NCBI GenBank assembly: GCA_040755495.1
Contig: JBFMAT010000013.1
Coordinates: 7,968 to 71,967, forward strand
Length of the DNA stretch: 64,000 nt
Direction of reading: 5' to 3'
From: Chloroflexota bacterium
GTDB taxonomy: Bacteria > Chloroflexota > Limnocylindria > Limnocylindrales > CSP1-4
Position numbers and translations under genes: made by a program. The notes below the pieces were generated by a model. It had not been told where the DNA came from and did not search any database. It was given only the letters and a program-made list of their open reading frames with translations. Below, piece by piece: positions 9,035 through 39,473 of the stretch. Position 1 is the stretch's first letter, and the number at the start of each line of letters is the position of its first letter.

Positions 9035-9457
9035 ATGGCGGCTGCGCGCCGGCCGGACCGGGACCCGACCCGGCCCGTGTACGTCATCAGCGTGGCTGCG
9101 ACCCTTGTCTCGGCGCACCCGCGAACACTCCGGATCTACGAAGACGAGGGCCTGGTCTGCCCGGCGCGCACACCGACCAACATCCGCCTCTACTCGGAGG
9201 CCGACATCCGCCGGATCCTGTGGATCCGGCACCTGACGCGGGACCGCGGCGTCAACCTCGCCGGGGTCCGCACCCTGTTCGAGCTCGAGGAGCGGCTGGG
9301 CAAGCGCATCCTCGAGGCGCTGTACGACGAAGGAACACGCGAGCAGCACGGCGAGGCCGGCGCTGCCGCGGCAGGAACCAGTACCCGGACCGAATCCCGC
9401 ACCGGAACCCGAACCGACGTGCCGGACCAGCCGGCCGGCACCCCAAGGAGACCCTGA
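9035..9457 (+). CDS. hspR: MerR-family heat-shock repressor, HspR-like
   Basis: VYVISVAA...HPRTLRIYE..GLV.PAR...RLYSEADI...GVNLAGV; located among chaperone genes. Confidence 0.8.
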   Translation: MAAARRPDRDPTRPVYVISVAATLVSAHPRTLRIYEDEGLVCPARTPTNIRLYSEADIRRILWIRHLTRDRGVNLAGVRTLFELEERLGKRILEALYDEGTREQHGEAGAAAAGTSTRTESRTGTRTDVPDQPAGTPRRP

Positions 9458-11946: not shown

Positions 11947-11981
11947 GGGGTCGCCCTGGGACGCCCGATGCGCGTGTTGCC

Positions 11982-21961: not shown

Positions 21962-21997
21962 GGCCCGTCACCTCCGCGTCGGTAGACTCGGGGGCGC

Positions 21998-24330: not shown

Positions 24331-24398
24331 GGGCTCCCGGAGGCCCGCCGCCGCCCGTTCGTGGTGGCGCCGGTCAGGGTCGCCGCGCCGGCGACCGC

Positions 24399-24407
24399 TG
24401 CTAGAAT
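24399..24407 (+). promoter_or_regulatory. Extended -10 promoter of the nuo operon
   Basis: TGCTAGAAT (TGn-TAGAAT) about 110 nt before nuoA. Confidence 0.55.
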
Positions 24408-24515: not shown

Positions 24516-24872
24516 GTGACCGGCATCTGGTACGTCGTCGGGTTCGCCTTCGCGGGCGTCTCGTTCGTCTTCCTGACGATCGGGCTGTCGTGGCTGATCA
24601 CCCATCGCACCCGGGGTGATCGCCACAAGGGCTACCCCTACGAGTCCGGGATCGACACCTACGGCGACACGCACGCCCGGTTCGGCATCTCGTTCTACAT
24701 CTACGCCCTGATGTTCGTCGCCTTCGACATCGAGGTGGTGTTCATCTACCTGTGGGCGCTGGTGTTCCGCGACCTGGCGCTGGCCGGCTTCATGAGCATG
24801 CTGGTGTTCGTGGTCATCCTCCTCGTGGGCCTCGCCTACGCCTGGCGAAAGGGGGTGCTCACGTGGAAGTGA
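24516..24872 (+). CDS. nuoA: NADH-quinone oxidoreductase subunit A
   Basis: [36 protein letters not shown]. Confidence 0.95.
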
Positions 24873-25627
24873 TCCCCGGCGGCCCGGACGAGATCCGGGA
24901 TCCCGGCGTCGGGCCGGCAGGCGGCACCGGGACGGACGACGAGGCCGGCCAGCGTCCCAGCGCACTGGTCACCGCGGCACCGCGAGACGTCGCCCAGCCG
25001 ATCGTCGTCCCCAACACCCTGTGGGCGTCGACGCGTCCCGAGGCCTACGGTGGCGGGCTGCCGACCGAGCACACGCACCTCCGCGAGCTCGAGGGCTCGC
25101 CCCTGCTGATCCGGGACGACGCTCGCTGGGGCGCGCTCGAGGTCATCCCCACCAAGGCCGACCTCGTGCTCGACCTGATCCGCATGAACAGCCTTTGGCC
25201 GCTGCTGTCGGGCCTGGCCTGCTGCGCGATCGAGATGATGTCCGCGGCGACGTCGCGCAACGACATGGACCGCTGGGGCATGTTCCCGTTCCGCGCCTCT
25301 CCCCGACAGGCGGACGTGCTGATCGTCGCCGGCACGCTGACCACCAAGATGGCCGGCCCGCTGGTCCGCCTGTGGGAGCAGATGCCGGAGCCCAAGTGGT
25401 GCGTGGCGATGGGCGACTGCACCTGCTCGGGCGGGCGCTACAAGCGCAGCTACGCCACGATCGAGGGCATCGACCGCGTGATGCCCGTGGACGTGTACGT
25501 GCCCGGCTGCCCGCCCCGGCCCGAGGGCCTGATCTACGGGATGATGAAGCTCGGCCAGCTGGTCAAGCAGCGCCGCGGCCAGTGGCCCGAGCGGACGGTT
25601 GGCCCCACCGTGCCGGAGGACGTCTAG
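24869..25627 (+). CDS. nuoB: NADH-quinone oxidoreductase subunit B
   Basis: [35 protein letters not shown] (N2 ligands); start uncertain. Confidence 0.95.
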
Positions 25628-25629: not shown

Positions 25630-26178
25630 ATGGACCGGAGCCTCCGCAAGCGGCTCGAGGCGCGGTTCGCTGACCGCCTGACCGGCCCGGTGCGCCAGCG
25701 CCACGACCAGACCGAGATCCGCATCCGCCCGGCGGACGTGCCCGAGGTCATGCGCGAGCTCCACGACGACCCGGCGCTCGGCTTCGAGATCCTCGCGGAC
25801 CTCGCGGGCGTGGACACGGGCACGCACATGCAAGTCGTCTACCACCTGTGGTCGGCCGGCACGCCGGACTGGCTCCGCGTGGTCGCGGACGGCATGCCCC
25901 GCGACGACCCACGCATCCCCACGCTCACCGGCCTGTGGCCGGGGGCGGAGTGGATGGAGCGCGAGACCTACGACATGTTCGGGATCATCTTCGAGGGCAA
26001 CCGTGACCTGCGGCGGATCTACATGCCGCCCGACTACACGAGCTTCCCGCTGCGCAAGGACTTCTACCTGCCGGACGACGCGGCCCGGTCCCCCGGTGGC
26101 GGCGTCCGCCACATGGAGCAGACGCACACCCCGACCCAGGCGACCCCGTCCGTGGTCCGCCGCACGGCGAAGGCGTAG
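25630..26178 (+). CDS. nuoC: NADH-quinone oxidoreductase subunit C
   Basis: AEWMERETYDMFGIIFEG..LRRI..PLRKDF. Confidence 0.93.
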   Translation: MDRSLRKRLEARFADRLTGPVRQRHDQTEIRIRPADVPEVMRELHDDPALGFEILADLAGVDTGTHMQVVYHLWSAGTPDWLRVVADGMPRDDPRIPTLTGLWPGAEWMERETYDMFGIIFEGNRDLRRIYMPPDYTSFPLRKDFYLPDDAARSPGGGVRHMEQTHTPTQATPSVVRRTAKA

Positions 26179-26180: not shown

Positions 26181-27416
26181 ATGACGACGACCACCCCGCA
26201 CCAGCACCCCTCCGCCGACGACCCCCGGGTGCTGCTCGACGACCAGGTCGGCGCGTTCGAGGCCGTCCCGCCGTACCCGCCGCGGACCGAGCGCGAGGCG
26301 GAGTTCTACTCGCTCGGCGACGGCGAGATGTTCCTCAACATGGGCCCCCAGCACCCGTCCACGCACGGGGTGCTGCGGGTCGTGCTCAAGATCGACGGCG
26401 AGCGGGTCGTGGACCTGGACCCGGTGCTCGGCTATCTCCACCGCGGCGTCGAGAAGCTGTGCGAGACCTCGGACTTCCACCACATCATCAGCCAGCTCGA
26501 CCCGCTCGAGTACATCAGCTCGCTGTTCATGGAGTGGGCGCCCGTGATGGCGTTCGAGCAGCTGCTGGACGTGCAGGTGCCGCGCCGGGCCGAGTACATC
26601 CGGGTGCTCACCGGCGAGCTCAACCGGGTCGCCAGCCACGCGCTGTTCCAGGGCTGGATGGCGCTGGACCTGGGCGGCCTGACCCCGATCCTGTACAGCT
26701 TCATCGAGCGCGACGAGATCGTCGAGATGCTGGCCGCGATCACCGGGCAGCGGATGCTGTTCAACTACTTCCGGGTCGGCGGCGTGAACGGCGACCTGAA
26801 CCACGAGTTCATGTCCCGCCTGGGCGACTGGATGAGCCGGGCGACCGCGCAGAACCAGGCCAACATCGAGCTGCTCAACGACAACGAGATCTTCGTCCGG
26901 CGCATGCGCGGCATCGGCCGGCTGGACCGCGAGACGGCCCTCCGGATGGGGACCACGGGCCCCAACATCCGCGCCGCGGGCGTGCCGTTCGACATCCGGC
27001 GGGCCCACCCGTACTCGGTCTACCCCGAGCTCGAGTTCGACATCCCGACCCGCGGCCATGACGGCGGTGGCGACTCGCTGGACCGCTACCTGCTCCGGCT
27101 GGACGAGGTCAAGCAGAGCCTCCGGATCATCGACCAGTGCCTCCACAACATGCCCGACGGGCCGGTCATGGCCCGCCTGCCGCGCCTGCTCCGGCCGCGT
27201 CCCGGCCGGGCGTGGGCCGCGGTCGAGGCGCCGCGCGGGCTGTTCGGCACGTACGTGATCTCGGACGGCACGGACCAGCCGTTCCGGATGAAGATCCACG
27301 ACCCCTCGTTCGTCAACCTCCAGCTGGTGGGGCTGCTGATGAAGGGCAACCTGATCGCGGACACCATGGCCGTGATGGCATCCCTCGATCCCGTCATGGG
27401 CGGCATCGACAAGTGA
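26181..27416 (+). CDS. nuoD: NADH-quinone oxidoreductase subunit D
   Basis: NMGPQHPSTHGVLR, GYLHRGVEK, ELNRVASH, EAPRG; no NiFe CxxC motifs. Confidence 0.95.
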   Translation: MTTTTPHQHPSADDPRVLLDDQVGAFEAVPPYPPRTEREAEFYSLGDGEMFLNMGPQHPSTHGVLRVVLKIDGERVVDLDPVLGYLHRGVEKLCETSDFHHIISQLDPLEYISSLFMEWAPVMAFEQLLDVQVPRRAEYIRVLTGELNRVASHALFQGWMALDLGGLTPILYSFIERDEIVEMLAAITGQRMLFNYFRVGGVNGDLNHEFMSRLGDWMSRATAQNQANIELLNDNEIFVRRMRGIGRLDRETALRMGTTGPNIRAAGVPFDIRRAHPYSVYPELEFDIPTRGHDGGGDSLDRYLLRLDEVKQSLRIIDQCLHNMPDGPVMARLPRLLRPRPGRAWAAVEAPRGLFGTYVISDGTDQPFRMKIHDPSFVNLQLVGLLMKGNLIADTMAVMASLDPVMGGIDK

Positions 27417-28765
27417 CGGCGATCGGGCGCGCCTGGGGGAACCTCACGGTCACCGGGAGGGTCCTCGTCCCGCTGCTGTTCCTGGTGCTCGTCGTCGCAC
27501 CGGTGGCGACCGTCCTGATCGCGCTGTTCGTCGGGCCGTGGGTCCTGGACGTCCTCGCCTCGAACCTGGGCATCGTCCGGTTCGTGGTCGCGATCACCGG
27601 GGTGCTGCTGTTCACGATCCCGGCCGCGTTCGTGATCATCTACATGGAGATGAAGGTCATCGCCCGGATGAACCTCCGGATCGGGCCCGACCGCGTCGGC
27701 CCGTACGGGTCCCTGATGTCCGTGGTCCACGGCCTCAAGTTCCTGTCCAAGGAGGACTTCACCCCGACGGGCGCCGACGTGCCGGTGTTCACGCTCGCCC
27801 CGGTGGCCGTGTTCCTGGCCACGGTCATGACCTTCCTGGTCGTGCCGTTCGGCCCCGGACTGGTCGGCCAGGACCTCAACATCGGCCTGCTGTACCTGTT
27901 CGCCGTCGGCGGCATGAACGTGGTCGGGCTGCTGATGGCCGGCTGGGCCAGCTTCAACAAGTACTCGCTGCTGGGTGGGCTGCGGGCCGCGGCCCAGGCG
28001 GTCAGCTACGAGATCCCGCTGACCCTCTCGGTCGTGGGCCTCGTGCTCCTGGCCGGCACGCTGAGCGTGTACCAGATCGGCGCGGCCCAGGCGGGCTGGT
28101 TCACGGACTGGTTCGTGTTCCGCCAGCCGCTGGGCGCCCTGATCTTCTTCATCGCCGGCACGGCGGAGGCCAACCGCTCGCCGCTGGACATGACCGAGGC
28201 GGACCAGGAGATCGTGGCGGGCTTCGCCACCGAGTACTCCGGGATGCGGTTCGCGTTCTTCTTCTTCGCCGAGTACGTGAACGTGTTCGTGATGTCGGCG
28301 CTCATCGTCACGCTGTTCTTCGGCGCCTGGAACGCCCCGTTCCCGTTCCCGGACGTCGCGCTGGCGCTGGACCCGGGCTCGCTGGGGATCGGGCTCGTGA
28401 TCCTGCTCGCGGCGGCGCCGGTGGCCCTGACCCTGCTGTTCGCGGCGCCGTTCTACCTCGCCCGCAGCTCGACGCCCGCCTGGCAGGCGCTGCTGCTCGG
28501 CTTCATCACGTTCAACGTGGTGGCGGTCGGCGGCCTGCTGGGTGCCGCCTACCTCGGGCTCGACTGGTTCGCCGGCCTCGCCTGGTTCATGGTCAAGACG
28601 TTCATCTTCGTGTTCGTCTTCGTGTGGATGCGGGGCACCTTCCCGCGGGTGCGCATCGACCAGCTGATGGGCTTCGCGTGGAAGTGGCTGCTGCCGGCGT
28701 CGCTGCTCAACCTGTTCGTGACCGCGGCGGCAATCCTCGTCGTCGATGCGCTGAAGGCCGGGTGA
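27413..28765 (+). CDS. nuoH: NADH-quinone oxidoreductase subunit H (450 aa, extra TM segments)
   Basis: RIGPDRVGPYG, KEDFTP, NKYSLLGGLRAAAQAVSYE, EYSGMRF, RGTFPRVRIDQLM. Confidence 0.93.
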   Translation: MTAIGRAWGNLTVTGRVLVPLLFLVLVVAPVATVLIALFVGPWVLDVLASNLGIVRFVVAITGVLLFTIPAAFVIIYMEMKVIARMNLRIGPDRVGPYGSLMSVVHGLKFLSKEDFTPTGADVPVFTLAPVAVFLATVMTFLVVPFGPGLVGQDLNIGLLYLFAVGGMNVVGLLMAGWASFNKYSLLGGLRAAAQAVSYEIPLTLSVVGLVLLAGTLSVYQIGAAQAGWFTDWFVFRQPLGALIFFIAGTAEANRSPLDMTEADQEIVAGFATEYSGMRFAFFFFAEYVNVFVMSALIVTLFFGAWNAPFPFPDVALALDPGSLGIGLVILLAAAPVALTLLFAAPFYLARSSTPAWQALLLGFITFNVVAVGGLLGAAYLGLDWFAGLAWFMVKTFIFVFVFVWMRGTFPRVRIDQLMGFAWKWLLPASLLNLFVTAAAILVVDALKAG

Positions 28766-28769: not shown

Positions 28770-29432
28770 ATGAGCACGATCCCCGGGATGGGCATGGTCC
28801 GCGGCATGGGCCTCACCCTGCGCCGCTTCTTCGCGCCCAAGGCCACGATCCAGTGGCCCGAGGTGCACGCGGACGTCGCGCCCAAGTTCCGCGGCCGCCT
28901 CCAGCTGCTGTACGACGAGTACGGCACGCTCAAGTGCGAGACCTGCTTCCAGTGCGCCCAGGCCTGCCCGATCGAGTGCATCGACATGGGCGGCATCGAC
29001 ACCAAGGGCCGCTTCCACGTCCACTGGGGCCCGCCCGAGACGTACGGCGAGCGGCGCGAGGAGTCGGCGCTCCGGCGCTCCGGGCGCCCGGTCGCGGACC
29101 ACGGCTACACGCGCTTCGAGGGCATCGACCTCGGCCCGCTGGACGCGATCCTCGATGCCCACGACTACGACCCCGGGGACATGCTCGCGATCCTCGAGGA
29201 GGCCCAGGCCGAGTACGGCTACCTGCCCGTGGCCGCGCTCCGGCACATCTCGCGGGTGACCGGCGCCTGGTACGCGATGATCTACGGCACCGCCACGTAC
29301 TACCGGCACCTCCGCTTCGAGCCGCCGGCCGTCACCGACACGCCACCGGCCGGCACGGCGCAACGCGGCATCGAGGACGGGTACCGGTCGGCGCTGGACG
29401 CCGCCCTGGGCCTCGGCGGGCGGCCGAGCTGA
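28770..29432 (+). CDS. Fusion of the NuoI N-terminal half with the NuoE N-terminal helical domain
   Basis: ATIQWPE..KFRGR..CETCFQCAQACPIECI (one ferredoxin motif), then LAILEEAQAEYGYLP..IYGTATYY; no NuoE 2Fe-2S Cys. Confidence 0.88.
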   Translation: MSTIPGMGMVRGMGLTLRRFFAPKATIQWPEVHADVAPKFRGRLQLLYDEYGTLKCETCFQCAQACPIECIDMGGIDTKGRFHVHWGPPETYGERREESALRRSGRPVADHGYTRFEGIDLGPLDAILDAHDYDPGDMLAILEEAQAEYGYLPVAALRHISRVTGAWYAMIYGTATYYRHLRFEPPAVTDTPPAGTAQRGIEDGYRSALDAALGLGGRPS

Positions 29433-30772
29433 TGGCCACCTTCCTCGCCACCCCGCGCCAGTGGCCCCGGGTGCTGACCGGGCGCGTTGACGCGCTCGCG
29501 GCCAACCCCGCGGACCTGGACGCCGCCGTGCGCGCCGGCGCCTTCGAGGGCCTGCGCAAGGCGGTTCGCGACCTGGGCGCCACCGGCACGATCGCGACGC
29601 TCGCGGCCTCCGGCCTCCGCGGCCGGGGCGGTGCCGGCATGCCCACCGGCCAGAAGTGGCGCGCCGCGTCCGCCCAGCCGGCAGACCAGCGCTACGTGGT
29701 GGGCAACGGCTACGGCGCCGACCCGGCGGTCCACACGGACCACGCGTTGCTGTCCTCGGACCCGTACGCCGTGATCGAGGGCCTTGTCATCGCCGCCTTC
29801 GCGACCGGCGCCACGCGGGCGATCCTTGCGGTCCGCGCGGACGATCCCGCGCTGGTCACGATGCTCGAGGGCGCCGTCCTCGCGGCCGAGGAGGCGGGCT
29901 TCGCCGGCGAGGACGTGCTGGGCACGGGCCACGCGGTGGAGGTCACCGTGCGGCCGGTCCAGGGCGCCTACATGCTGGGCGAGGAGACCGTGCTGCTCAA
30001 GGCCCTCGAGGGCCGGCGCGGCCAGCCCGAGCAGGTGCCGCCTTACCCCACCGAGCGCGGCCTGTTCGACCGGCCCACCGTCGTCAACAGCATCCACACG
30101 CTGGCCGCCGTCCCCTGGATCTGCCGCGAGGGCGGGGCGGCGTACGCGGCGATCGGCGCCAAGGGGAGCCCGGGGACGGCCCTCGTCCAGCTGCGCGGCC
30201 CGGCCGGCGGTGGCATCGCGGAGGTCCCGCTGGGCACGCCGCTGCGCGACCTCGTCAAGCTCGCGGGCGGCACCGGCCCGCGCCCGCTCAAGGCGCTGCT
30301 CGTGGGCGGCCCGACCGGCGGCCTGCTCCCCGCGGAGCTCCTGGACACGCCCTACGAGTTCGACGCGCTGCGCGCGGCCGGCGCACACCTCGGCTCCGGG
30401 TCCGTGGTGATCGCGGACGACCGGACCTGCGTGGTGGACCTGGCGCGTCTGCTGACCCGCTTCTCGGCCGACAACGCGTGCGGCAAGTCCATCCCCTGCC
30501 GGATCGGGCTGCGCCGGCTGTCCGAGATCGGCGACCGGATCGCCGGCGGGCGCCCGAAGCCCACCGACGCCACTCTCCTCGGCGACCTCGCCCACGACAT
30601 CGTGGCCAGCGGCCTGTGCGACCACGAGCGCCTGGCCACCCTGCCGTTCACCAGCGGGATGCGATACTTCCGCTCCGAGATCGACGACCACATCCTCCGC
30701 TCCACCTGCCCCGCCGGCGTCTGCCAGCCGATCGCGGTGGCGGCGGGCGCGGCCCACCGGGACCACGCTTGA
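29432..30772 (+). CDS. Degenerate NuoF/HydB-like subunit
   Basis: SGLRGRGGAG.PTG.KW, GEET, GGPTGG, C-terminal CPAGVC; several flavin/NAD-site and N3 residues are altered. Confidence 0.85.
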   Translation: MATFLATPRQWPRVLTGRVDALAANPADLDAAVRAGAFEGLRKAVRDLGATGTIATLAASGLRGRGGAGMPTGQKWRAASAQPADQRYVVGNGYGADPAVHTDHALLSSDPYAVIEGLVIAAFATGATRAILAVRADDPALVTMLEGAVLAAEEAGFAGEDVLGTGHAVEVTVRPVQGAYMLGEETVLLKALEGRRGQPEQVPPYPTERGLFDRPTVVNSIHTLAAVPWICREGGAAYAAIGAKGSPGTALVQLRGPAGGGIAEVPLGTPLRDLVKLAGGTGPRPLKALLVGGPTGGLLPAELLDTPYEFDALRAAGAHLGSGSVVIADDRTCVVDLARLLTRFSADNACGKSIPCRIGLRRLSEIGDRIAGGRPKPTDATLLGDLAHDIVASGLCDHERLATLPFTSGMRYFRSEIDDHILRSTCPAGVCQPIAVAAGAAHRDHA

Positions 30773-33432
30773 TGGCCGACCTGATCACGCGCCCCGACCC
30801 CACGCTCGAGCGACCGCGCGAGGTCCGCCCGGACGCCCCGATGGTGTACGACACCGTCACGCCCCGGGAGGACTCGCTCGCCGAGCGGCTGATCACCACC
30901 CAGTCCCCGCAGCGGCCGCAGAGCACGCCGCGGATCCGGATCGAGGTGGACGGCCGGGTCGTCGAAGGGTTCGAGGGCCAGACGATCCTCGAGGTCTGCC
31001 GGGACAACGGGATCGAGATCCCCACCCTGTGCTACGAGCCCAAGCTGCCGGGCTTCGGCGCCTGCCGGATGTGCGTGGTCGAGGTCGAGGGCGAGGAGAC
31101 GCCGCCGATCTCCTGCTCGCGCGCGGCCGAGGCCGGGATGGTCGTCCAGACCCAGACCGAGGAGCTGCGCCGCCTCCGCCGGACGAACCTGGAGCTGATC
31201 TTCTCCGACCACAACGCCTACTGCCTGCCGCCGTGCCAGAACAAGTGCCCCAGCCACATCGACATCCCGGGCTTCCTGCGGGCCAACGCCGAGGCGAGCT
31301 GGCGGGAGAGCGCGCGGATCTTCAAGCGCACGATCCCGTTCCCGTCCATCCTCGGCCGGGTGTGCCCCGCCCCGTGCGAGGAGCACTGCCGGCGCGACGA
31401 GGTGGACGAGGCGATCGCGATCCGCGACAGCCACCGCTACGCCGGCGACCAGGTGCTGCGGGCGATGCTGGACGAGGGCGTGGACCCGCCGCTGCCGTTC
31501 GAGCGCCAGGCACCGACCGGCCGCCGCGCGGCGGTGATCGGCTCCGGGCCCGCCGGCATGGCCGCCGCCTACTACCTGCTGCTCAACGGCCACGAGGTGA
31601 CCGTGTTCGAGCGCGACCCCGCCCCGGGCGGCATGCTCCGATACGGCATCCCGCAGTACCGGCTGCCGAAGGTCGAGGTCCTCGAGGCCGAGTACGAGGC
31701 CGTCTGGCGCCTGGGCGCGAAGCTCCAGTGCAACATGGAGCTGGGCAAGGACTTCACGCTCGACGACCTGCAGAACCAGGGCTTCGACGCGGTGGTCGTG
31801 GCCATCGGCTGCTACGACACCAACAAGCTGGGCATCCCCAACGAGGACGCGGACGGCGTCATCGACGGCCTCGAGTACCTGCGCACGGCCACCCTGGGCC
31901 TGCCGTACCCGGGCCACGAGGGGACCCGGGCGGTCGTGATCGGCGGCGGGTTCACGGCCATGGACTGCGTCCGGACCTCGGTCCGCCAGGGTGCCGGCGA
32001 GGTCACGCTGGTCTACCGCCGCGACATGAAGGACATGCCGGCGGCGAGCGAGGTGCACGAGGCGATCGAGGAGGGCGTCACCACGATCTTCCAGGCCGGC
32101 CCGACCCGCGTGATCACGGATGAGCGCACCGGCAAGGTCACCGGCGTCGAGTTCATCCGGATGCAGCTCGGCGAGCCGGACGCGTCCGGCCGGCGCCGCC
32201 CGGAGCCCGCCCCCGGCACCGAGTTCACGATCGACTGCGACCGCGTGCTGCTGGCGATCGGCCAGGGTCCCGACCTGCGCTGGATCGGCCCGGGCTCCGA
32301 GGGCCCACTGGCCACCAGGCAGCGCCGCCTGGGCGCCGACGCCGTGACGTTCGAGACGGCCCGTCCCGGCGTGTTCGGCACCGGCGACGTCCGGATCGGC
32401 GCCGCGACCGTCGTCCAGGCCATCGCGGAGGGCCGGCGGGCCGCATACGCGGTGGACGCCTACCTGCGGGGCCAGGACCTGGCCGCGATCCGGACCCGGC
32501 AGACGCTGGCGGAGCCGCAGCCCGAGTTCCTCTCGATCGTCCCGTTCACCGGCGAGGTCAAGGAGCCGCGCTACCGGCTCAAGGCGCTGGAGGCCGAGGC
32601 CCGCAACCGCAGCTACATCGAGTACGAGATCCCGTACACCGGGGAGGAGGCCGTGGCGGAGTCCACCCGCTGCCTGCAGTGCACCTGCGAGGCGATCGGG
32701 TTCTGCGACCTGCGCCGGCTGGGCATCGAGTACGGCACCACGCTGCGCACCCTGGAGCCCGCCTTCCACCAGGGCGCCGGCTACCGGAGCGTGACCGAGA
32801 ACCGGTTCACCGGCATCAACCACGACTACCTCCGCGATGACAGCCACGCGTTCATCCTGCGCGAGCCGTCCCGGTGCATCGACTGCGGCCGGTGCGCGAA
32901 CGTGTGCGCCGAGGTGGTGGGCGCCGCCTGCTACGACTTCATGCGGATCGGCTTCGACACGCTGGTGACGACGCCGCTGGACATGAGCCTCAACGACACG
33001 CCCTGCGTGTCCTGCGGGCGGTGCGCGGAGACCTGCCCCACCGGCGCGCTGATGCCCAAGCCCAGGATCCTCCAGAAGTACGAGGTCGACGAGAGCCGCT
33101 GCATCCTGTGCGGCATCTGCGTCGACGCCTGTCCATACGACGCCGTCCGCGACAGCGACCAGTTCGAGCTCAGCCACACGTCCCGCGAGGAGCCGATGAT
33201 CGACCTCCTCGCGCTGGCCTCGATCGAGCGCGAGACGGAGATGAGCTACATCCGCAAGGAGCGGGACTGGGCGGATCGCGCCCGGGCCGAGGGCAGGCTC
33301 CTCGACCCGGCGCGGAACCTCCCGGTGCTCCCCGCCTCGCTCGTGAGCGGCCATGGGAACGGCTCGGGGAACGGGCACCCAGCGCGCCAACTGGGGTCCG
33401 GGACCGGGTCGGGACACGCCCAGGACCACTGA
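30772..33432 (+). CDS. NuoG N-terminal Fe-S domains + GltD-like FAD/NAD(P)H domain + NuoI C-terminal half (886 aa)
   Basis: 2Fe-2S IPTLC..GACRMC..SC; PPCQNKCP, GRVCPAPCE, GSGPAG, GGGFTAMD, VYRR; CIDCGRCANVC and CVSCGRCAETCP; terminal YEVDESRCILCGICVDACPYDAV..FEL. Confidence 0.9.
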   Translation: MADLITRPDPTLERPREVRPDAPMVYDTVTPREDSLAERLITTQSPQRPQSTPRIRIEVDGRVVEGFEGQTILEVCRDNGIEIPTLCYEPKLPGFGACRMCVVEVEGEETPPISCSRAAEAGMVVQTQTEELRRLRRTNLELIFSDHNAYCLPPCQNKCPSHIDIPGFLRANAEASWRESARIFKRTIPFPSILGRVCPAPCEEHCRRDEVDEAIAIRDSHRYAGDQVLRAMLDEGVDPPLPFERQAPTGRRAAVIGSGPAGMAAAYYLLLNGHEVTVFERDPAPGGMLRYGIPQYRLPKVEVLEAEYEAVWRLGAKLQCNMELGKDFTLDDLQNQGFDAVVVAIGCYDTNKLGIPNEDADGVIDGLEYLRTATLGLPYPGHEGTRAVVIGGGFTAMDCVRTSVRQGAGEVTLVYRRDMKDMPAASEVHEAIEEGVTTIFQAGPTRVITDERTGKVTGVEFIRMQLGEPDASGRRRPEPAPGTEFTIDCDRVLLAIGQGPDLRWIGPGSEGPLATRQRRLGADAVTFETARPGVFGTGDVRIGAATVVQAIAEGRRAAYAVDAYLRGQDLAAIRTRQTLAEPQPEFLSIVPFTGEVKEPRYRLKALEAEARNRSYIEYEIPYTGEEAVAESTRCLQCTCEAIGFCDLRRLGIEYGTTLRTLEPAFHQGAGYRSVTENRFTGINHDYLRDDSHAFILREPSRCIDCGRCANVCAEVVGAACYDFMRIGFDTLVTTPLDMSLNDTPCVSCGRCAETCPTGALMPKPRILQKYEVDESRCILCGICVDACPYDAVRDSDQFELSHTSREEPMIDLLALASIERETEMSYIRKERDWADRARAEGRLLDPARNLPVLPASLVSGHGNGSGNGHPARQLGSGTGSGHAQDH

Positions 33433-33441: not shown

Positions 33442-34005
33442 GTGACGCTGCCTGAGACGATCCCGCTGCTCGGGATCGGGTGGGACGACCTGCTGTTCCT
33501 GGCGCTGACCGGGGTGATGCTCGGCTCCGCCCTGCTCGTGGTCACGATGCGCGACATCATCCGGTGCGGCCTGGCGATGATCGTCAGCTTCGGCGCCCTC
33601 GCCGGGCTGTACGTCCTCGCCGGGGCGCCGTTCGTCGCCGGCGCCCAGGTCCTGGTGTACATCGGCGCGATCAGCGTCCTGATCCTGTTCGCGATCATGC
33701 TCACCCAGACCAAGGATGCGCCCGGCGCCCTCGTGTTCCAGACCCAGGCGATCCCGGCCGCGATCGCCGCGCTGGTCATGGCGCTGATCCTGGCGATCAC
33801 GGTCGTGGCCACGGACTGGAGCGCCGTCGCGGACCGCATGTGGACGTTCACCGGCAAGGCGCCGGCCGGCCGGGACGAGCTCGGCGTCGCCGAATCGCTG
33901 TTCCAGGACTACGTGCTGCCGTTCGAGGTCGTGTCCGTGCTGCTGCTGGCCGCGGTGGTCGGCGGCGTGTTCATCGCCAAGCGCGAGCGGCGGGGGGACG
34001 CCTGA
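33442..34005 (+). CDS. nuoJ: NADH-quinone oxidoreductase subunit J
   Basis: QVLVYIGAISVLILFAIML, YVLPFEVVSVLLLAA. Confidence 0.94.
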   Translation: MTLPETIPLLGIGWDDLLFLALTGVMLGSALLVVTMRDIIRCGLAMIVSFGALAGLYVLAGAPFVAGAQVLVYIGAISVLILFAIMLTQTKDAPGALVFQTQAIPAAIAALVMALILAITVVATDWSAVADRMWTFTGKAPAGRDELGVAESLFQDYVLPFEVVSVLLLAAVVGGVFIAKRERRGDA

Positions 34006-34337
34006 TGCTCGCCTTCCTGGACGGGATCTCGCGGTCGCTGGACGCCTACCTCGTCATCGCGGGGATCATGTTCGCCGTCGGCTCGTTCGGCTTCCTGGCC
34101 CGCCGCAACGCGATCAGCATGCTGATGTCGATCGAGCTCATGCTCAACGCCGTCAACCTCGCGATCATCGGGTTCGGGGCGTTCATCCCCGCGCTCCACC
34201 CCGACGCGTCGGTGATCGCGCTGATCGTGATGGCCGCCGCCGCCGCCGAGGCGACGATCGGCCTCGCGATCGTGATCGCCATCTTCCGCAACCGGAAGAC
34301 GCCGCTCGTCGACGAGTACGACGCGATGCGGCAGTAG
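34005..34337 (+). CDS. nuoK: NADH-quinone oxidoreductase subunit K
   Basis: RRNAISMLMSIELMLNAVN, AAAEATIGLAI. Confidence 0.95.
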   Translation: MLAFLDGISRSLDAYLVIAGIMFAVGSFGFLARRNAISMLMSIELMLNAVNLAIIGFGAFIPALHPDASVIALIVMAAAAAEATIGLAIVIAIFRNRKTPLVDEYDAMRQ

Positions 34338-34349: not shown

Positions 34350-36437
34350 ATGCATCTCCTGCCGATCACGCTCCTCGCCGCCGCGGAGGGCTCGGAGGCC
34401 GTCGCCGCGGATCCCGGCATCTACGCGACGCTGATCCCGCTGATCATCGCGCTGCCGCTGGCGGGCTTCGTGTTCACGACCTTCTTCGGGCGGCGGCTGC
34501 AGGCCTCGTTCGGGAGGAACGTGGCCGCCGCGGTCCCGCTGGGCGTGGTAATCGCGTCGTGGGTCGTGGCGATGGTCGTGGTCTCGGCGGTGCTCCAGCA
34601 CCAGGGACCGTTCCCGGAGCACGGCCCCGGCCTGGACCTCACGCTGTGGACCTGGATCCCGGCCGGCGTCGACCCGGCCACCGGGCGCGAGCTCACCGTC
34701 GACTTCGGGTTCCACGTGGACGCCCTCACCGCGGTGCTCCTGATCGTGGTCACGACGATCGGCCTGCTCGTCCACCTGTACTCGGTCGGGTACATGGCCC
34801 ACGACCCGGGCACCTGGCGGTTCTTCGCCTACCTCAACCTGTTCATGGTCTCGATGCTCCTGCTCGTGCTGGCCGGCAACTGGCTGCTGGTGTTCGCGGG
34901 CTGGGAGCTGGTCGGCCTGTCGTCCTACTCGCTGATCGGGTTCTGGTACCAGAAACGGTCGGCGGCGCTGGCCGCCAAGAAGGCGTTCATCGTCAACCGC
35001 GTGGGCGACGTGGGGTTCGCGCTCGGGATCATGGCCATCTGGGTCAACACCGGGACGCTGGACATCCAGGCCTCACTGGCCAGGCTGATCGAGACGCCGG
35101 CCGCGGAGCTCACGGTCCCGCTGTGGATCGTCGCGCTGCTGGTGTTCGCGGGCGCGATGGGCAAGAGTGCCCAGTTCCCGCTCCACGTCTGGCTGCCGGA
35201 CGCGATGGAGGGCCCCACCCCGGTGTCCGCCCTGATCCACGCGGCCACGATGGTCAACGCGGGCGTCTACCTCGTCGCCCGGGCCAACCCGCTGTTCGCG
35301 CACGCGCAGGACGCGATGGTCGTGGTGGCGGCGATCGGCATCTTCACCGCCATCCTGGCCGCCTCGATCGCCTTCACCCAGACCGACATCAAGCGCGTGC
35401 TCGCCTACTCCACGCTGTCGCAGCTGGGCTACATGTTCGCCGCCCTGGGCGTGGGCGCCTTCATCGCGGCGATCTTCCACCTCATGACCCACGGCTTCTT
35501 CAAGGGCCTGCTGTTCCTCGGGTCCGGCTCGGTGATCCACGCCGTCCACGAGGAGCAGGACATGAACCGGATGGGCGCGCTGTGGCGGAAGATCCCGATC
35601 ACCCACTGGACGATGCTGGTGGGCACGATCGCGATCGCCGGCATCCCGCCCCTGGCGGGCTTCTTCTCCAAGGACGAGATCCTGGGCGAGGCATTCAAGT
35701 TCGGGTTCACCTGGGTGTGGGCGATCGGCCTCCTGGTCGCCGCGATGACGGCGTTCTACATGTGGCGCCTGATGGGCAAGACGTTCTACGGCGAGTCGCG
35801 CGTGGACCCGCACGTGGAGCCGAAGGTCCACGAGTCCGCCTGGACGATGACGGTGCCCCTGGTCCTGCTGGCGATCCCGTCGGCGCTGCTGGGCCTCGCG
35901 CTCACGTGGGGGGGCCCGCCGCTCAACCCCGAGGGGACCGGGCTGCTCAAGGGCTGGCTGGAGCCGGTGTTCGAGGAGGCGGAGCTGTACCTCCACGGCG
36001 AGGCGCACGCCTACGAGCTGTTCGGCATCGACGGCATCCTGATCCTGGCCAGCGTGGCCGTGGCGACCCTCGGCCTCGTCGCCGGCATCGCGCTGTTCGG
36101 GTTCTTCCGGGCGCGCGGCCTGCGGGCCACCGCCGACCGGATCGCCGGCGGCACCCGGGTCACCCGGTTCCTGTACCGGGCCTCGCTCAACAAGTGGTGG
36201 TTCGACGAGCTCAACGACCTGCTGTTCATCCGCATCGGCGGGCGCGTCGCGGCCTTCCTGTGGTGGTTCGACCGGACGATCGTGGACGGCACCGTCAACG
36301 GCGTCGGCGCCCTCACCCGGGACGCGGGCGGCGGGCTGCGCCGGATCCAGACGGGCCGGGTCCAGAACTACGCGCTGGGCATCGCGATCGGGCTGATCGT
36401 CATGGCCGGCTCCTTCCTCGTGATCGTGAGCCGCTGA
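34350..36437 (+). CDS. nuoL: NADH-quinone oxidoreductase subunit L
   Basis: GWELVGL, KAFIVNRVGD, GKSAQFPLHVWLPDAMEGPTPVSALIHAATMV, IQTGRVQNY. Confidence 0.96.
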   Translation: MHLLPITLLAAAEGSEAVAADPGIYATLIPLIIALPLAGFVFTTFFGRRLQASFGRNVAAAVPLGVVIASWVVAMVVVSAVLQHQGPFPEHGPGLDLTLWTWIPAGVDPATGRELTVDFGFHVDALTAVLLIVVTTIGLLVHLYSVGYMAHDPGTWRFFAYLNLFMVSMLLLVLAGNWLLVFAGWELVGLSSYSLIGFWYQKRSAALAAKKAFIVNRVGDVGFALGIMAIWVNTGTLDIQASLARLIETPAAELTVPLWIVALLVFAGAMGKSAQFPLHVWLPDAMEGPTPVSALIHAATMVNAGVYLVARANPLFAHAQDAMVVVAAIGIFTAILAASIAFTQTDIKRVLAYSTLSQLGYMFAALGVGAFIAAIFHLMTHGFFKGLLFLGSGSVIHAVHEEQDMNRMGALWRKIPITHWTMLVGTIAIAGIPPLAGFFSKDEILGEAFKFGFTWVWAIGLLVAAMTAFYMWRLMGKTFYGESRVDPHVEPKVHESAWTMTVPLVLLAIPSALLGLALTWGGPPLNPEGTGLLKGWLEPVFEEAELYLHGEAHAYELFGIDGILILASVAVATLGLVAGIALFGFFRARGLRATADRIAGGTRVTRFLYRASLNKWWFDELNDLLFIRIGGRVAAFLWWFDRTIVDGTVNGVGALTRDAGGGLRRIQTGRVQNYALGIAIGLIVMAGSFLVIVSR

Positions 36438-37984
36438 TGAACGTCGACCAGATCCCGATCGTGTCGCTGATCGTGTTCCTGCCCCTGCTGGGCGCGCTGG
36501 TCGTGGCGTTCCTGCCCGGCAGGCGCACGGACCTCATCCGCTGGACGGCGCTGGGCTTCGCGCTCGCGGCGTGGGTCGTGTCGCTGATCCTGCTGGTGGG
36601 CTTCCCGCCCGGCCGGCCGGGGTTCGAGTACACCCAGGCGATCGACTGGATCCCGCTGTTCGGCATCCAGTACAAGGTCGGGGTGGACGGGCTGTCGATG
36701 GCGATGGTCGTGCTGACCACGACGCTGACCTGGATCAGCATCCTCGCCTCGTTCCGGCCGATCCAGAACCGGGTCAAGGAGTACATGGTCTCGTTCCTCG
36801 TGCTCGAGGTCGGGATGATCGGGGTGTTCGTGGCCCTGGACCTGTTCCTGTTCTACGTGTTCTGGGAGCTGGTCCTCGTCCCGATGTACCTGATCATCGG
36901 CGTGTGGGGCGGCGCGAACCGCATCTACGCCACGATCAAGTTCGTCCTGTACACGCTGGTCGGCTCACTGCTGATGCTGGTCGCGATCCTGGCCACCGCG
37001 TTCACGTACCAGGCGGCGACCGGCTCGTGGGCGGGCGCCTTCGACCTCGAGGTCCTGAGCGCGCACGCGGCGACCGGCGCCTTCGATCCCACGTTCCAGT
37101 TCCTCGCCTTCGGCGCGTTCTTCCTCGCGTTCGCGATCAAGGTTCCGATGTTCCCGTTCCACACCTGGCTCCCCGACGCCCACGTCGAGGCCCCCACCGC
37201 CGGCTCGGTGATCCTGGCCGGCGTCCTGCTCAAGCTGGGCGGCTACGGGTTCATCCGGTTCGCGCTGCCGCTGTTCCCGGACGCGGCGCACACGTGGGCG
37301 CCCGCGATCATCGTGCTGTCGCTGATCGCGATCATCTACGGCGCGGTCGTGGCGCTCGTCCAGCCGGACCTCAAGAAGCTGGTCGCGTACTCCTCGGTCA
37401 GCCACATGGGCTTCGTGACCCTGGGCATCTTCGTGTTCCAGCCCCAGGCCCTCCAGGGCGCCATCCTGCAGATGGTCAACCACGGCCTGATCACCGGCGC
37501 CCTGTTCCTGCTGGTGGGGGTGATCTACGAGCGGACCCACGACCGGACGATCGCCAAGATGGGCGGGCTGGGGGCGAAGGTCCCGGTCTACGCCGCGTTC
37601 TTCGGGTTCTTCGTGTTCGCGTCGGTCGGCCTGCCGGGCCTGTCCGGGTTCGTGGGCGAGTTCCTCACGCTGATCGGCACGTTCGCCGTCCAGCCGTGGG
37701 CGGCCGTGGTGGCGACGTTCGTGATGATCCTCGCCGCCGGGTACCTGCTGTGGATGTTCCAGCGGGTGGCGTTCGGCGAGGTGTCGGACTTCCTCAAGGG
37801 CCTCGGCGGGCACCTGACCGACATGCGCCCCGTGGAGGTGTTCACGCTGGTGCCGCTGGGCGCGCTGGTCGTCGTGTTCGGCCTGTTCCCCGGCCTGATC
37901 CTCAACCTCGTGGGCGGGTCCGTCACCCACACCCTGGACGCGGTCCTGCGGGGCGCGCCCGTCGCCCTCGGGCTGTGGCGGTAG
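36437..37984 (+). CDS. nuoM: NADH-quinone oxidoreductase subunit M
   Basis: FYVFWE, AIKVPMFPFHTWLPDAHVEAPT, KKLVAYSSVSHMG. Confidence 0.96.
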   Translation: MNVDQIPIVSLIVFLPLLGALVVAFLPGRRTDLIRWTALGFALAAWVVSLILLVGFPPGRPGFEYTQAIDWIPLFGIQYKVGVDGLSMAMVVLTTTLTWISILASFRPIQNRVKEYMVSFLVLEVGMIGVFVALDLFLFYVFWELVLVPMYLIIGVWGGANRIYATIKFVLYTLVGSLLMLVAILATAFTYQAATGSWAGAFDLEVLSAHAATGAFDPTFQFLAFGAFFLAFAIKVPMFPFHTWLPDAHVEAPTAGSVILAGVLLKLGGYGFIRFALPLFPDAAHTWAPAIIVLSLIAIIYGAVVALVQPDLKKLVAYSSVSHMGFVTLGIFVFQPQALQGAILQMVNHGLITGALFLLVGVIYERTHDRTIAKMGGLGAKVPVYAAFFGFFVFASVGLPGLSGFVGEFLTLIGTFAVQPWAAVVATFVMILAAGYLLWMFQRVAFGEVSDFLKGLGGHLTDMRPVEVFTLVPLGALVVVFGLFPGLILNLVGGSVTHTLDAVLRGAPVALGLWR

Positions 37985-37994: not shown

Positions 37995-39473
37995 GTGGGC
38001 TACGAAGACATCGTCACCCTCGCCCCCTTCATCGCGACGATCCTGGTCGCGGCGGCGATCCTGTTCGTGGACTTCGTCGCGCCCGGGCGCAAGGTCCCGG
38101 CGCTGGCGGTCACGTTCGGTGGCCTCGCGCTGGTGGCGGTCCTCGTCGTGCTCACCGGCCAGAGCGCGGTCACCGGCCGCGACGAGGTCACGGCGTTCCA
38201 GGGCGCCTACGTCGTCGATCGGCTGACGACGTTCCTGGACCTGCTGTTCGTCTCGATCGCCGCCCTCACGATCGCGTTCGCCCCGGACTACCTCGAGGAG
38301 CGGGAGCTGCCGGTGGCGGAGTTCGCCGCCGTGCTCGTGTTCGCGATCTCGGGCGCGATGCTGATCTCCGCGTCCGCGGACCTGCTGGTCCTGTTCCTGG
38401 GCCTGGAGCTGATGGTCCTGCCCGGCTACGTGCTCGCGGGCTACCACAAGTCGGACGGGTACAGCACCGAGGGCGCGATCAAGTACTTCCTGCTGGGCTC
38501 GTTCTCGAGCGCGATCTTCCTGTTCGGCCTCGCGTTCGTGTGGGGCCTCACGGGCACCACCAGCATCGCCGGGGTCGCCGGGGTGCTGGGCCAGGTCGCG
38601 GACGGGCGGCCGCTGTCGCCCGGCCTGGGCATGGGGCTCGCGTTCCTGACCACGGGCGTGGCGTTCAAGATCGCCGCCGTCCCGTTCCACTACTGGACGC
38701 CCGACGCGTACCAGGGCTCGCCCACCCCGGTCACCGGCTACCTGTCGGTGGGCCCCAAGGTGGGGGCGTTCGCGCTGATCATCCGGCTGTTCGCGGAGGC
38801 CCTCGGGCCGCTGGCCGCGGACTGGAACGTCGTGGTCATGGTCCTCGCCGCCACGACGATGACGCTGGGCAACCTGGTCGCCCTCACACAGGACAACGTC
38901 AAGCGGATGCTGGCCTACTCGTCGATCGCGCACACCGGCTACATGCTGGTGGGCTTCGCGGCCTGGGCGGCGGGGCAGCCGTCCGGCCTGGAAGGGCTGC
39001 TGTACTACGGCGCGGCGTACGCGTTCATGAACCTGGGTGCGTTCGCCGTCATCGCCGCGCTCCAGAAGCGCCTCGGCGTGACCAGCAACCTGTCCACGTT
39101 CGCGGGCCTCATCCGGCGCGAGCCGGCGCTGGCGATCCTGATGACGCTGTTCCTGCTGTCGCTCACCGGGATCCCGCCCACGGCCGGCTTCTTCGGCAAG
39201 TTCTACGTGATCCTCGCGGCCGTCCAGGCCGGCGGCTGGCTCGCCGTGCTGGCCGTGCTCGCCGTGCTCAACGCCGCGGCCGCCGCGTTCTACTACCTGC
39301 GGGTCGTGGTCTACATGTTCATGCGCGACCCGACGACCGAGATCCCCTCGCTCACCCACGGTCGCCTGGTGTGGGCAGGCCTCGCGGTGGCGACGGTGCT
39401 CACGATCGTGCTCGGGCTGTTCCCGGGCGCGATGCTCGAGATCGTGGGCGGCGCCGCAAAGGCGATCGGCTAG
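37995..39473 (+). CDS. nuoN: NADH-quinone oxidoreductase subunit N
   Basis: EGAIKYFLLG, FKIAAVPFHYWTPDAYQG, KRMLAYSSIAH, GIPPTAGFFGK; AGGAGG RBS. Confidence 0.96.
   Translation: MGYEDIVTLAPFIATILVAAAILFVDFVAPGRKVPALAVTFGGLALVAVLVVLTGQSAVTGRDEVTAFQGAYVVDRLTTFLDLLFVSIAALTIAFAPDYLEERELPVAEFAAVLVFAISGAMLISASADLLVLFLGLELMVLPGYVLAGYHKSDGYSTEGAIKYFLLGSFSSAIFLFGLAFVWGLTGTTSIAGVAGVLGQVADGRPLSPGLGMGLAFLTTGVAFKIAAVPFHYWTPDAYQGSPTPVTGYLSVGPKVGAFALIIRLFAEALGPLAADWNVVVMVLAATTMTLGNLVALTQDNVKRMLAYSSIAHTGYMLVGFAAWAAGQPSGLEGLLYYGAAYAFMNLGAFAVIAALQKRLGVTSNLSTFAGLIRREPALAILMTLFLLSLTGIPPTAGFFGKFYVILAAVQAGGWLAVLAVLAVLNAAAAAFYYLRVVVYMFMRDPTTEIPSLTHGRLVWAGLAVATVLTIVLGLFPGAMLEIVGGAAKAIG

Follow-up and report, generated by a model that had tools for sequence, protein, structure and literature searches.

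Where is NuoI encoded in a complex I operon that has no intact nuoI between nuoH and nuoJ? The operon in question lies on the plus strand of a 64,000-nucleotide (nt) stretch of DNA from a Chloroflexota bacterium (assembly GCA_040755495.1, contig JBFMAT010000013.1, positions 7,968 to 71,967 of the forward strand; the whole stretch is called the window here). The source genome is a 3.74-Mb draft in 112 contigs and is 95.7% complete. The operon runs nuoA-B-C-D-H, then three genes, called the cassette here, then nuoJ-K-L-M-N, an order confirmed from the open reading frames (ORFs), protein families and orthologues. The original prediction for this DNA proposed that a nuoE-F-G cassette had been inserted into nuoI, each half of which was fused to an electron-input subunit. 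We find that nuoI is split, that its halves are fused to the first and third cassette proteins, that the arrangement is conserved in relatives, and that no other nuoI was found over the family cut-off in the source genome. The cassette itself appears, by homology, to be of a different kind from nuoE-F-G.

NuoI is encoded in two halves

The cassette genes and their parts are listed below in window coordinates. Residue numbers of P0003 are as printed; the count from the ATG is one less.

28770..29432, plus strand: fusion gene 1 (gene 1; P0001, 220 amino acids [aa]), NuoI N-terminal half, linker, NuoE-like helical domain
28770..29015, plus strand: NuoI N-terminal half (P0001 residues 1-82), from TIGR01971, structural matches, conservation and omega
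28935-28970, plus strand: motif 1, C56-x2-C59-x2-C62-x3-C66-P67, the single CxxCxxCxxxCP of P0001
29118..29327, plus strand: NuoE/NfnC/StnA-like N-terminal helical domain (P0001 residues 117-186), from PF01257 and 9bov_C
29432..30772, plus strand: gene 2, NuoF/NfnB-like flavin mononucleotide (FMN)/NADH subunit (P0002, 446 aa from ATG), from PF01512 and PF10589
30772..33432, plus strand: fusion gene 2, the third cassette gene (gene 3; P0003, 886 aa from ATG), NfnA/StnC-like, then NuoI C-terminal half
30931..31158, plus strand: [2Fe-2S] Fer2_4 domain of the NuoG/HydA N-terminal type (P0003 residues 55-130), from PF13510 (E 4.8e-22)
31222..32478, plus strand: GltD/NfnB-like domain (P0003 residues 152-570), 2x[4Fe-4S] Fer4_20 plus flavin adenine dinucleotide (FAD) and NAD(P)H Rossmann folds, from PF14691 and PF07992
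32854..33051, plus strand: HydA/NuoG-type 2x[4Fe-4S] ferredoxin domain (P0003 residues 696-761), from PF22117
32875-32907, plus strand: ferredoxin-domain motif A, C703/706/709/713
33004-33039, plus strand: ferredoxin-domain motif B, C746/749/752/756-P757
33064..33219, plus strand: NuoI C-terminal half (P0003 residues 766-817), from TIGR01971 and 8qby_I
33100-33135, plus strand: motif C, C778-x2-C781-x2-C784-x3-C788-P789, the second Cys motif of NuoI, then the FEL motif

P0001 matches the NuoI family model TIGR01971 at residues 12-75, over model positions 1-63 of 121 (46.8 bits), and its residues 8-73 align with the N-terminal half of NuoI/TYKY chains of known structure in the Protein Data Bank (PDB; E ~7e-11). 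P0003 matches the same model at residues 766-811, over positions 71-116 (47.4 bits), and its residues 768-817 match residues 93-142 of 8qby_I (E 8e-12). Coverage of the model by the two proteins is complementary and non-overlapping, which bears out the split and the two fusions. Alignment to hidden Markov models (HMMs) of NuoI, NuoE and NuoG found the NuoI halves on both proteins and, on P0001, only the helical part of NuoE. All five Cys of P0001 fall within residues 56-70, with none beyond residue 70. The cassette genes are coupled by TGATG stop/start overlaps at 29430-29434 and 30770-30774; these overlaps, the ORF coordinates and the position of motif 1 had all been predicted correctly to the base.

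A further observation concerns the point of the split. In a MAFFT alignment two stretches fall on one strand of canonical NuoI, the strand preceding motif 2: the stretch after motif 1, ETYGERREESALR (29031-29075, with Y92 and R95 invariant), and KYEVDESR (33076-33102), with which the C-terminal half begins. The two stretches could represent a short duplication of one NuoI strand at the split point, which is unproven; the HMM alignments of the halves abut at NuoI positions 63-72 without overlap and lend a duplication no support.

No intact nuoI found elsewhere in the genome

A profile search of the source genome found no intact nuoI over the TIGR01971 cut-off (>=113.05 bits). The best match (C24:1874-2155, 50.6 bits over NuoI positions 9-116) is a 114-aa HycF/NuoI-like 2x[4Fe-4S] protein, whose gene on contig 24 is flanked by those for a small subunit and for a NiFe-type large subunit that has Cys motifs; it is the ferredoxin subunit of a group-4 hydrogenase-like cluster. 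Five relatives, drawn from the four families of the class, were searched as well; one is a 3.62-Mb assembly in a single contig and another a genome of 1.4 Mb. None has a match over the cut-off, in agreement with the original prediction, and the two NuoI halves are among the best TIGR01971 matches in all five. In G019, as in the source genome, a HycF-like match scores highest; G006, G028, G086 and G353 have no full-length HycF-like NuoI match.

Two loci outside the window can be mentioned here. The start of contig 24 (L001) holds this group-4 NiFe hydrogenase-like cluster, in which the large subunit bears Cys pairs near both termini and the small subunit is NuoB-like. Contig 26 (minus strand, ~6098-11953; L038) carries a second NuoE+NuoF pair in one open frame (PF01257, PF01512), adjoining a Fer2_4/Fer4/Molybdop_Fe4S4 frame, with a Molybdopterin + Molydop_binding frame upstream, not downstream; this looks like an Fdh-like set in an odd order.

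Composition of the cassette

The proposed E-F-G identity of the cassette stands only in part: gene 2 has a NuoF-like core, but the third gene is not a nuoG, since it carries a GltD-like FAD/NADPH domain, and the E part is without its cluster domain. Residues 117-186 of P0001 match residues 19-88 of 9bov_C (E 5e-11) as well as StnA, NfnC and HydC chains, and PF01257 (NuoE) matches residues 125-186 only, over model positions 2-63 of 145. This part is Cys-free and lacks the thioredoxin-like [2Fe-2S] domain; the helical portion alone is kept.

In relatives, the NuoE-like part retains two or three of the four Cys of this cluster (C1 of the Bfu enzymes) at most; the [2Fe-2S] domain has been lost stepwise within the family. 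Three of the four remain in a 277-aa form (L122) and two in the 273- and 282-aa forms of L019:9483-10304 and L020:9666-10514; the domain is deleted in the window's genus (compare window 29328-29432) and absent from other families.

P0002 comprises only the core domains of NuoF, Complex1_51K, SLBB and NADH_4Fe-4S (PF01512 and PF10589 among the Pfam matches), and it scores 318 bits against a NuoF equivalog cut-off of 558. Among proteins of known structure it is closest to the B subunits of NfnABC, StnABC and HydABC, whose N- and C-terminal extensions it lacks: the best PDB match covers residues 112-526 of the 584 of 9bov_B (344 bits), and canonical NuoF chains score ~236-250 bits. The FMN loop GLRGRGGAG, K76, N93 and the GEE motif are invariant in the P0002 alignment, and the canonical ESEPGT-type stretch of NuoF is altered, as judged by eye. 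The motif ACGKSIPC (~30479-30499) has Ser in place of the second Cys of the N3-type cluster, so the site may hold a three-Cys or mixed-ligand cluster; split-type enzymes from other families retain that Cys, as does a canonical NuoF. After the fourth Cys of the N3 motif there is a conserved C-(D/E/Q)-H-E, where other families have C-G-F/Y-G and canonical NuoF has C-P-L-G.

Residues 56-789 of P0003 align to NfnA of C. saccharolyticus (9bov_A, 542 bits), StnC (8oh5_C, 476 bits) and a further NfnA (9n5u_A, 473 bits). The 9bov_A alignment ends near residue 700 of 1178, the ferredoxin domain of P0003 being aligned to residues 589-700, and there the NuoI C-terminal half replaces the Fdh-like domain. 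Residues 56-715 also match positions 4-630 of PRK12814 (NF009454, 550 bits). The NuoG family model TIGR01973 matches residues 58-156 only, and P0003 does not have the molybdopterin-like domain of a canonical NuoG. The paired ferredoxin domain of NfnA, StnC and HydA has its counterpart in motifs A and B; those three proteins have no motif C. The GltD-like FAD/NADPH domain points to a second nucleotide site and so, likely, to dual input from NADH and NADPH. Because all three cassette proteins find their best solved relatives within one set of PDB entries, the cassette is, judged by homology, a reduced NfnABC/StnABC (Bfu-type) module with a second nucleotide site, and not nuoE-F-G.

Conservation, selection and integrity of the assembly

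A protein search with P0001 gave 2950 matches, the best 120 of which are 213-232 aa long and 80-94% identical; where named, the homologues are called 'NAD(P)H-dependent oxidoreductase subunit E' and come from Candidatus Limnocylindrales or Chloroflexota. A search with the last 198 aa of P0003 gave 1196 matches, under names that include 'FAD-dependent oxidoreductase' and 'formate dehydrogenase major subunit'. Among 401 Chloroflexota genomes searched, the class is represented by four families, and matches spanning both parts of P0001 are present in 23/23, 4/4, 16/16 and 2/2 of their genomes. The full-length fusion was found in 23 of 24 other genomes of the genus (the sole miss being a 72% complete genome) and in 15 of 16 genomes of a second genus, whose genomes are 1.0-1.4 Mb. 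Beyond the class it occurs at 27-33% identity in at least 15 listed genomes from three other Chloroflexota families. A match of any kind was seen in 341 of the 401; this tally includes the unpublished genomes G078, G212, G184, G310, G380 and G266, on none of which the claims of fusion, synteny and conservation rest.

A scan with one genome per species gave at least 586 relatives, and the best 80 loci are all of Limnocylindrales or Chloroflexota type, apart from a few differently labelled bins. The following counts are for these best 80 loci, with loci of sufficient length as denominators. Motif 1 is kept in 80/80, gene 3 carries the NuoI C-terminal half in 68/69, a NuoH orthologue ends less than 200 nt upstream of the fusion gene in 75/76, and NuoJ lies downstream in 68/69. 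The order H-IE-F-G/IC-J (IE and G/IC being the two fusion genes) is identical in L019, L020 and L027, so that the fusions recur in synteny, as the original prediction supposed they should if real. The arrangement is far beyond chance. Two loci have frame breaks in several nuo genes, resembling assembly indels. The exception in the counts is L088, whose operon is cut after gene 2; the unrelated genes that come next look by eye IscA-like, ThyX-like and 2-oxoglutarate dehydrogenase-like.

Apparent tri-fusions of NuoI-N, NuoE and NuoF (610-750-aa representatives, ~700-aa frames) were considered and rejected: three are frame-shifted gene calls, and the IE ORF stops after 217-277 aa in four genomes.

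In an alignment of gene 1 (11 sequences, down to 26% identity), the Cys and Pro of motif 1, R41-G42, Y92 and R95 are invariant. In the gene 3 alignment (10 sequences, down to 44% identity), the same holds for all Cys and Pro of motifs A, B and C, F799-E800, C88, C99, C102, C116, the GltD Rossmann motifs and Y416-R417-R418. All eight Cys and both Pro of the split NuoI are thus invariant. Pairwise ratios of nonsynonymous to synonymous substitution rates (dN/dS, omega) were calculated for the window against ten loci of the genus. They are 0-0.28 for the NuoI N-terminal half, 0-0.34 for the linker, 0.11-0.66 for the NuoE-like domain and 0.27-1.13 for the C-terminal tail of P0001; for the NuoI C-terminal half omega is 0.20 against L027 and 0.10 against L019. 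The view that this is a maintained system is strengthened by the invariant Cys, by purifying selection on both halves and by conservation of the split throughout the class and beyond.

Contigs from two other DNA studies bridge the junctions between nuoH and gene 1, genes 1 and 2, genes 2 and 3, and gene 3 and nuoJ, as well as the NuoI-N/NuoE linker. Since the bridging runs contain at most 0.40 of the sampled words, they come from relatives and not from the source strain. The join at ~33052-33064, between the ferredoxin domain and the NuoI C-terminal half, is spanned by no contig among the matches listed and is carried by the assemblies. The junctions also occur in one assembly made of a single contig and in dozens of independent ones, which together with the bridging contigs excludes a chimera.

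Gene layouts and origin of the split

The split-NuoI enzyme is a distinct type of complex I. No other type was found in the Limnocylindrales-type class; elsewhere it occurs as a second complex I. Its genes lie at two loci in the fourth family of that class (G353; L021/L030), B-D-IE-F-G/IC and A-C-H-J-K-L-M-N, with one nuoD and one nuoH. The three other families have the split-type genes at three loci, B-IE-F-G/IC, A-C-D-H and J-K-L-M-N (G396: L023, L029, L123, L033), alongside a canonical 14-gene nuo operon with intact nuoI. When NuoA, B, C, D and H of the window were compared with the second-system and canonical copies of G396, identities were mixed, at 44% versus 36% for NuoD and 37% versus 43-53% for NuoH. 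The A-C-D-H locus of G396 is followed by unrelated genes, which might suggest a tail-less complex I, but a second nuoJ is present in 5/5 such genomes and, in G396, heads the J-K-L-M-N locus; this rules out the tail-less reading, and the second complex is dispersed rather than truncated.

Moparthi and Hagerhall (2011) reportedly described 11-subunit complex I/NDH-1-type operons without nuoEFG. In the available part of Degli Esposti 2015 (PMC4758237), the order of the 11-gene operon is A-B-C-D-H-(I)-J-K-L-M-N, and E-F-G do not stand between D and H. On this backbone order, and with all three cassette proteins closest to the same Nfn/Stn entries, the simplest reading is that the nuoI of an 11-gene type operon received a cassette that was in frame at either joint, and that the NuoE-like cluster would then have been lost. 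Insertion into nuoI, as originally proposed, fits the operon order; the inserted cassette would be of the Nfn/Stn type instead of nuoE-F-G.

Other genes of the operon and its surroundings

The membrane and quinone-module genes of complex I, nuoA, B, C, D, H, J, K, L, M and N, are all present in the one operon, whose G+C content is ~69-72%.

24516..24872, plus strand: nuoA, a 118-aa hydrophobic ORF; tblastn orthologues head the same operon in relatives
24863..25627, plus strand: nuoB (N2 subunit), PF01058, 95 bits; start at 24863 (GTG) or ~24842
25630..26178, plus strand: nuoC, from its translation and collinear orthologues in relatives
26181..27416, plus strand: nuoD, PF00346, 275.6 bits, without NiFe cysteines
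27413..28765 (start approximate), plus strand: nuoH, a hydrophobic frame ending at 28765
33442..34005, plus strand: nuoJ, orthologues downstream in relatives
34005..34337, plus strand: nuoK, orthologues in relatives
34350..36437, plus strand: nuoL, orthologues in relatives
36437..37984, plus strand: nuoM, an open frame with orthologues in relatives
37995..39473, plus strand: nuoN, orthologues in relatives

The nuoB translation has the CC..C..C pattern GLACCAIEM / GDCTCSGG / PGCPPRP, which we take to be the four Cys ligands of cluster N2. The source genome has only two PF00346 loci, nuoD being one.

Directly 5' of nuoA is a PF02636 (Methyltransf_28) gene, at ~23377-24330 within ORF 21736-24330 on the plus strand (158 bits). 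In the fourth family of the class, a PF02636 gene lies two genes downstream of the cassette (L021:14831-15919, 187 bits). NDUFAF7/MidA, a methyltransferase in the assembly of mitochondrial complex I, belongs to PF02636, and the linkage of this family to a bacterial nuo operon is possibly worth attention. The region 22000-24400 of the window has 79-81% G+C and very long open frames on both strands, of which only the PF02636 part matches a family. Directly 3' of nuoN are an AhpC/TSA-type peroxiredoxin gene (39533-40246, minus strand) and a sortase-domain gene (40316-41068, plus strand).

A model for the enzyme

We consider it likely that the operon encodes a proton-pumping complex I of unusual build, in which NuoI is rebuilt from two chains and both NADH and NADPH feed electrons to quinone without bifurcation. 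Each CxxCxxCxxxCP motif of a 2x[4Fe-4S] ferredoxin fold supplies one cluster with three of its Cys, while its fourth Cys goes to the other cluster. Because motifs A and B pair as in NfnA, StnC and HydA, motif C would be left unpaired in P0003, as motif 1 is in P0001, and we infer that motifs 1 and C pair with each other, this being the only pairing that preserves every ancestral partnership. The NuoI N-terminal half, with its membrane-side helix, FRGR and motif 1, would head a chain whose NuoE-like helical domain holds the NuoF-like subunit, much as the N-terminal domain of NuoE contacts NuoF in complex I structures. The C-terminal half, with motif C and FEL, would be the tail of the NfnA/StnC-like subunit. 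The halves would re-form the NuoI fold, with N6a and N6b each ligated by three Cys of one chain and one of the other, and the input module would be tied covalently to the quinone module on both sides.

NADH would deliver electrons at the FMN of gene 2, and NADPH would do so at the FAD that the GltD-like domain of gene 3 binds. The electrons would meet in the Fe-S chain of gene 3 and leave through its 2x[4Fe-4S] domain to N6a/N6b, N2 (NuoB) and quinone. In the available text of PMC10482914, the path in StnC runs from NADPH/FAD through C7-C6-C5-C4-C3 to FMN, and its clusters C1/C2 toward the Fdh-like domain are called 'non-functional'. NfnA is given the path A7-A6-A3-A2-A1, with an 'overflow' to A4/A5, and the minimal bifurcation site is B1-FMN-C1 (PMC11829005, in the part available). 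With the Fdh-like domain replaced by the NuoI C-terminal half, the former dead-end branch would become the exit to N6a/N6b. Electron bifurcation would not take place, since parts of the Bfu bifurcation site are absent, namely the C1 [2Fe-2S] cluster, the extra cluster/Zn domains of the B subunit (B2-B5) and one Cys ligand of B1/N3.

A bolder version, possible but doubtful in our view, has the heterodimeric 2x[4Fe-4S] fold sitting in a complex I whose head is a three-port Y-junction between NADH/FMN, NADPH/FAD and quinone. If so, the organism could respire on either nucleotide, and the enzyme, run backwards or sideways, could pass reducing power between NADH and NADPH, controlled by the proton gradient or the quinone pool. 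The head would then dock onto the membrane arm as the shared clusters are assembled. The enzyme was also considered as the cell's only transhydrogenase, and this was rejected since PntB is present in the genome.

Evidence against the model and alternative explanations

Several observations count against a two-chain NuoI with dual input. Each half scores far below the TIGR01971 cut-off. The second N3/B1 Cys is replaced in all 77 close relatives (L039-L118; Ser in 37, Thr in 40), and by Ala in L020, and its loss may mean that the NADH branch is altered or weak. The NADPH specificity of the GltD-like site is read from homology, and the pairing of the halves and the ligation of N6a and N6b across chains are likewise predictions from sequence. 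The presence of PntB would make the NADH/NADPH balance of the cell independent of this enzyme. The L088 operon is broken after the NuoF-like gene 2. Against L020, the most distant locus, omega is 0.38-0.93 in every segment and 0.60 in the NuoI C-terminal half; we read these values as saturation of dS, and they give the model no support. Contigs from two RNA libraries cover the same places as the bridging contigs, which is no proof of transcription.

The same parts could work in another way, as a coupled three-way redox head like that of Nfn and Stn, in which the rebuilt NuoI replaces ferredoxin and bifurcation, confurcation or driven transhydrogenation is linked to the quinone pool or proton gradient. 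In 11-subunit complexes, ferredoxin-type electrons enter at NuoI, which suits such a head, as do the kinship of all three cassette proteins with bifurcating NfnABC/StnABC and the retention and conservation of both flavin sites. Nuo-Bfu enzymes have also been predicted by Schut et al. (2022; PMC9304861, in the text available). We nonetheless think a coupled head unlikely: P0001, Cys-free beyond residue 70, leaves no C1 cluster, P0002 corresponds to the 9bov_B core without the N- and C-terminal cluster/Zn domains, B1/N3 is one Cys ligand short, and quinone as the sink makes bifurcation needless. It is also improbable that only one nucleotide site is catalytic, the enzyme being an NADPH:quinone oxidoreductase that works through the GltD-like FAD with a structural NuoF-like subunit, or the reverse. 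The universal substitution of the N3-type Cys in close relatives, the altered ESEPGT-type stretch and the stepwise loss of the NuoE-like cluster would fit such an enzyme. The invariant FMN loop, K76, N93 and GEE motif on one side, and the invariant Rossmann motifs and Y416-R417-R418 on the other, do not, and both domains are under purifying selection where measured; the class has only this complex I and NADH needs oxidation somewhere, although NDH-2 was not searched for.

The remaining alternatives deny that NuoI is rebuilt from its halves. Motifs B and C might form an in-chain 2x[4Fe-4S] ferredoxin, motif 1 pairing with A or binding nothing; the B-to-C spacing of 21 residues is typical of clostridial-type ferredoxins, and the top raw PDB matches of the C-terminal 210 aa are the polyferredoxins MvhB and FwdF, with B and C as one unit. 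This is very unlikely, given that A and B are the conserved pair of NfnA, StnC and HydA, all without motif C, and that the surroundings of motif C match NuoI positions 71-116, including FEL, well beyond the Cys motif. It would also leave the NuoI N-terminal half without its ancestral partner, whereas motifs A, B, C and 1 are jointly invariant. That the halves are relics, with N6a/N6b supplied by a separate ferredoxin-like protein, has a candidate in the HycF-like protein of contig 24, whose match covers most of the NuoI model (positions 9-116, 50.6 bits); its place between NiFe-type subunit genes, the lack of such a full-length match in G006, G028, G086 and G353, and the purifying selection and invariant Cys of the halves make this highly improbable. 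An artefact of assembly or gene calling, conceivable for a window taken from a 112-contig draft, is scarcely credible when the same junctions recur in a single-contig assembly, in dozens of independent assemblies and in contigs of two other studies.

Relation to known systems

To our knowledge, NuoI/TYKY is a single polypeptide in every described complex I and related hydrogenase. The enzyme shares with canonical NuoI/Nqo9/TYKY (NDUFS8; 8qby_I, 2fug_9) the N-terminal helix, FRGR, both CxxCxxCxxxCP motifs, the operon place between nuoH and nuoJ and a presumed role as the N6a/N6b carrier between the input chain and N2. It differs in being made of two polypeptides, with ~4.1 kb and three domains' worth of protein between the halves, in the fusion of those halves to input-module subunits and in that neither half reaches the family cut-off. 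The cassette resembles NfnABC (C. saccharolyticus, 9BOV/9BP5) and StnABC (S. ovata, 8OH5) in its set of three genes, which encode NuoE-like and NuoF-like proteins and a third protein whose NuoG-type N-terminal part carries a GltD-like FAD/NADPH domain as an insert. Unlike them, it has no C1 [2Fe-2S] domain, its B subunit is without the N- and C-terminal domains and its A subunit without the Fdh-like one; nor is it a soluble enzyme, both its ends being fused to NuoI halves in a nuo operon. Of four Bfu features tested, the A subunit with an inserted GltD-like domain is present, and C1, B2-B5 and the Fdh-like domain are absent. By its predicted features, then, this is a complex I that lacks a single NuoI, the features of a canonical N-module and three of the four Bfu features.

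The predicted Nuo-Bfu and Mbh-Bfu enzymes likewise have a Bfu-like ABC input module encoded in mid-operon of a complex I-type membrane enzyme, and one Mbh-Bfu subunit has an extra flavin site; they differ in their full BfuB/BfuC cluster content, and a split NuoI is unreported for them, NuoI being named 0 times in the main text (PMC9304861, as far as available). Dehalococcoides-type Mbh-Bfu was rejected as the same system, the NuoI-N and NuoE-like matches lying at separate loci in three f20 genomes. The 11-subunit complex I without nuoEFG has the same A-B-C-D-H-(I)-J-K-L-M-N backbone, but there an NAD(P)H module is missing or ferredoxin-binding subunits take its place (PMC4758237, available part); here subunit I itself incorporates such a module. 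Mbx-like operons of Thermotoga and proteobacteria have a GltD-like NAD(P)H flavoprotein at the NuoI position; in these NuoI is substituted, whereas here both of its halves are retained around the module (same source, same part). Free-standing PRK12814-type proteins ('putative NADPH-dependent glutamate synthase small subunit', a 657-position model) share the Fer2, GltD and ferredoxin domains, but P0003 is under the family cut-off of 916 bits and carries the NuoI C-terminal half at its end. A split NuoI goes unmentioned in the available parts of two surveys of unusual complex I and Bfu clusters (PMC4758237, PMC9304861). Our literature search, whose coverage stopped short of the supplementary gene-cluster figures of these two papers and of subscription journals, found no description of a split NuoI, which agrees with the original prediction that no complex I like this had been described.

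Significance

The carriers of the split NuoI are hundreds of uncultured species, named Limnocylindrales or Chloroflexota, which pipelines that count 14 complex I subunits would call deficient in nuoI and nuoG. This lineage-wide natural split indicates that the N6a/N6b domain tolerates a two-chain build, and it provides a natural test case for the assembly of an Fe-S domain across subunits. Covalent stitching on both sides would be a new way in which an input module is joined to its quinone module. The second flavin site of this respiratory enzyme, apparently of the NADPH type, would also bear on how complex I gained its electron-input modules.

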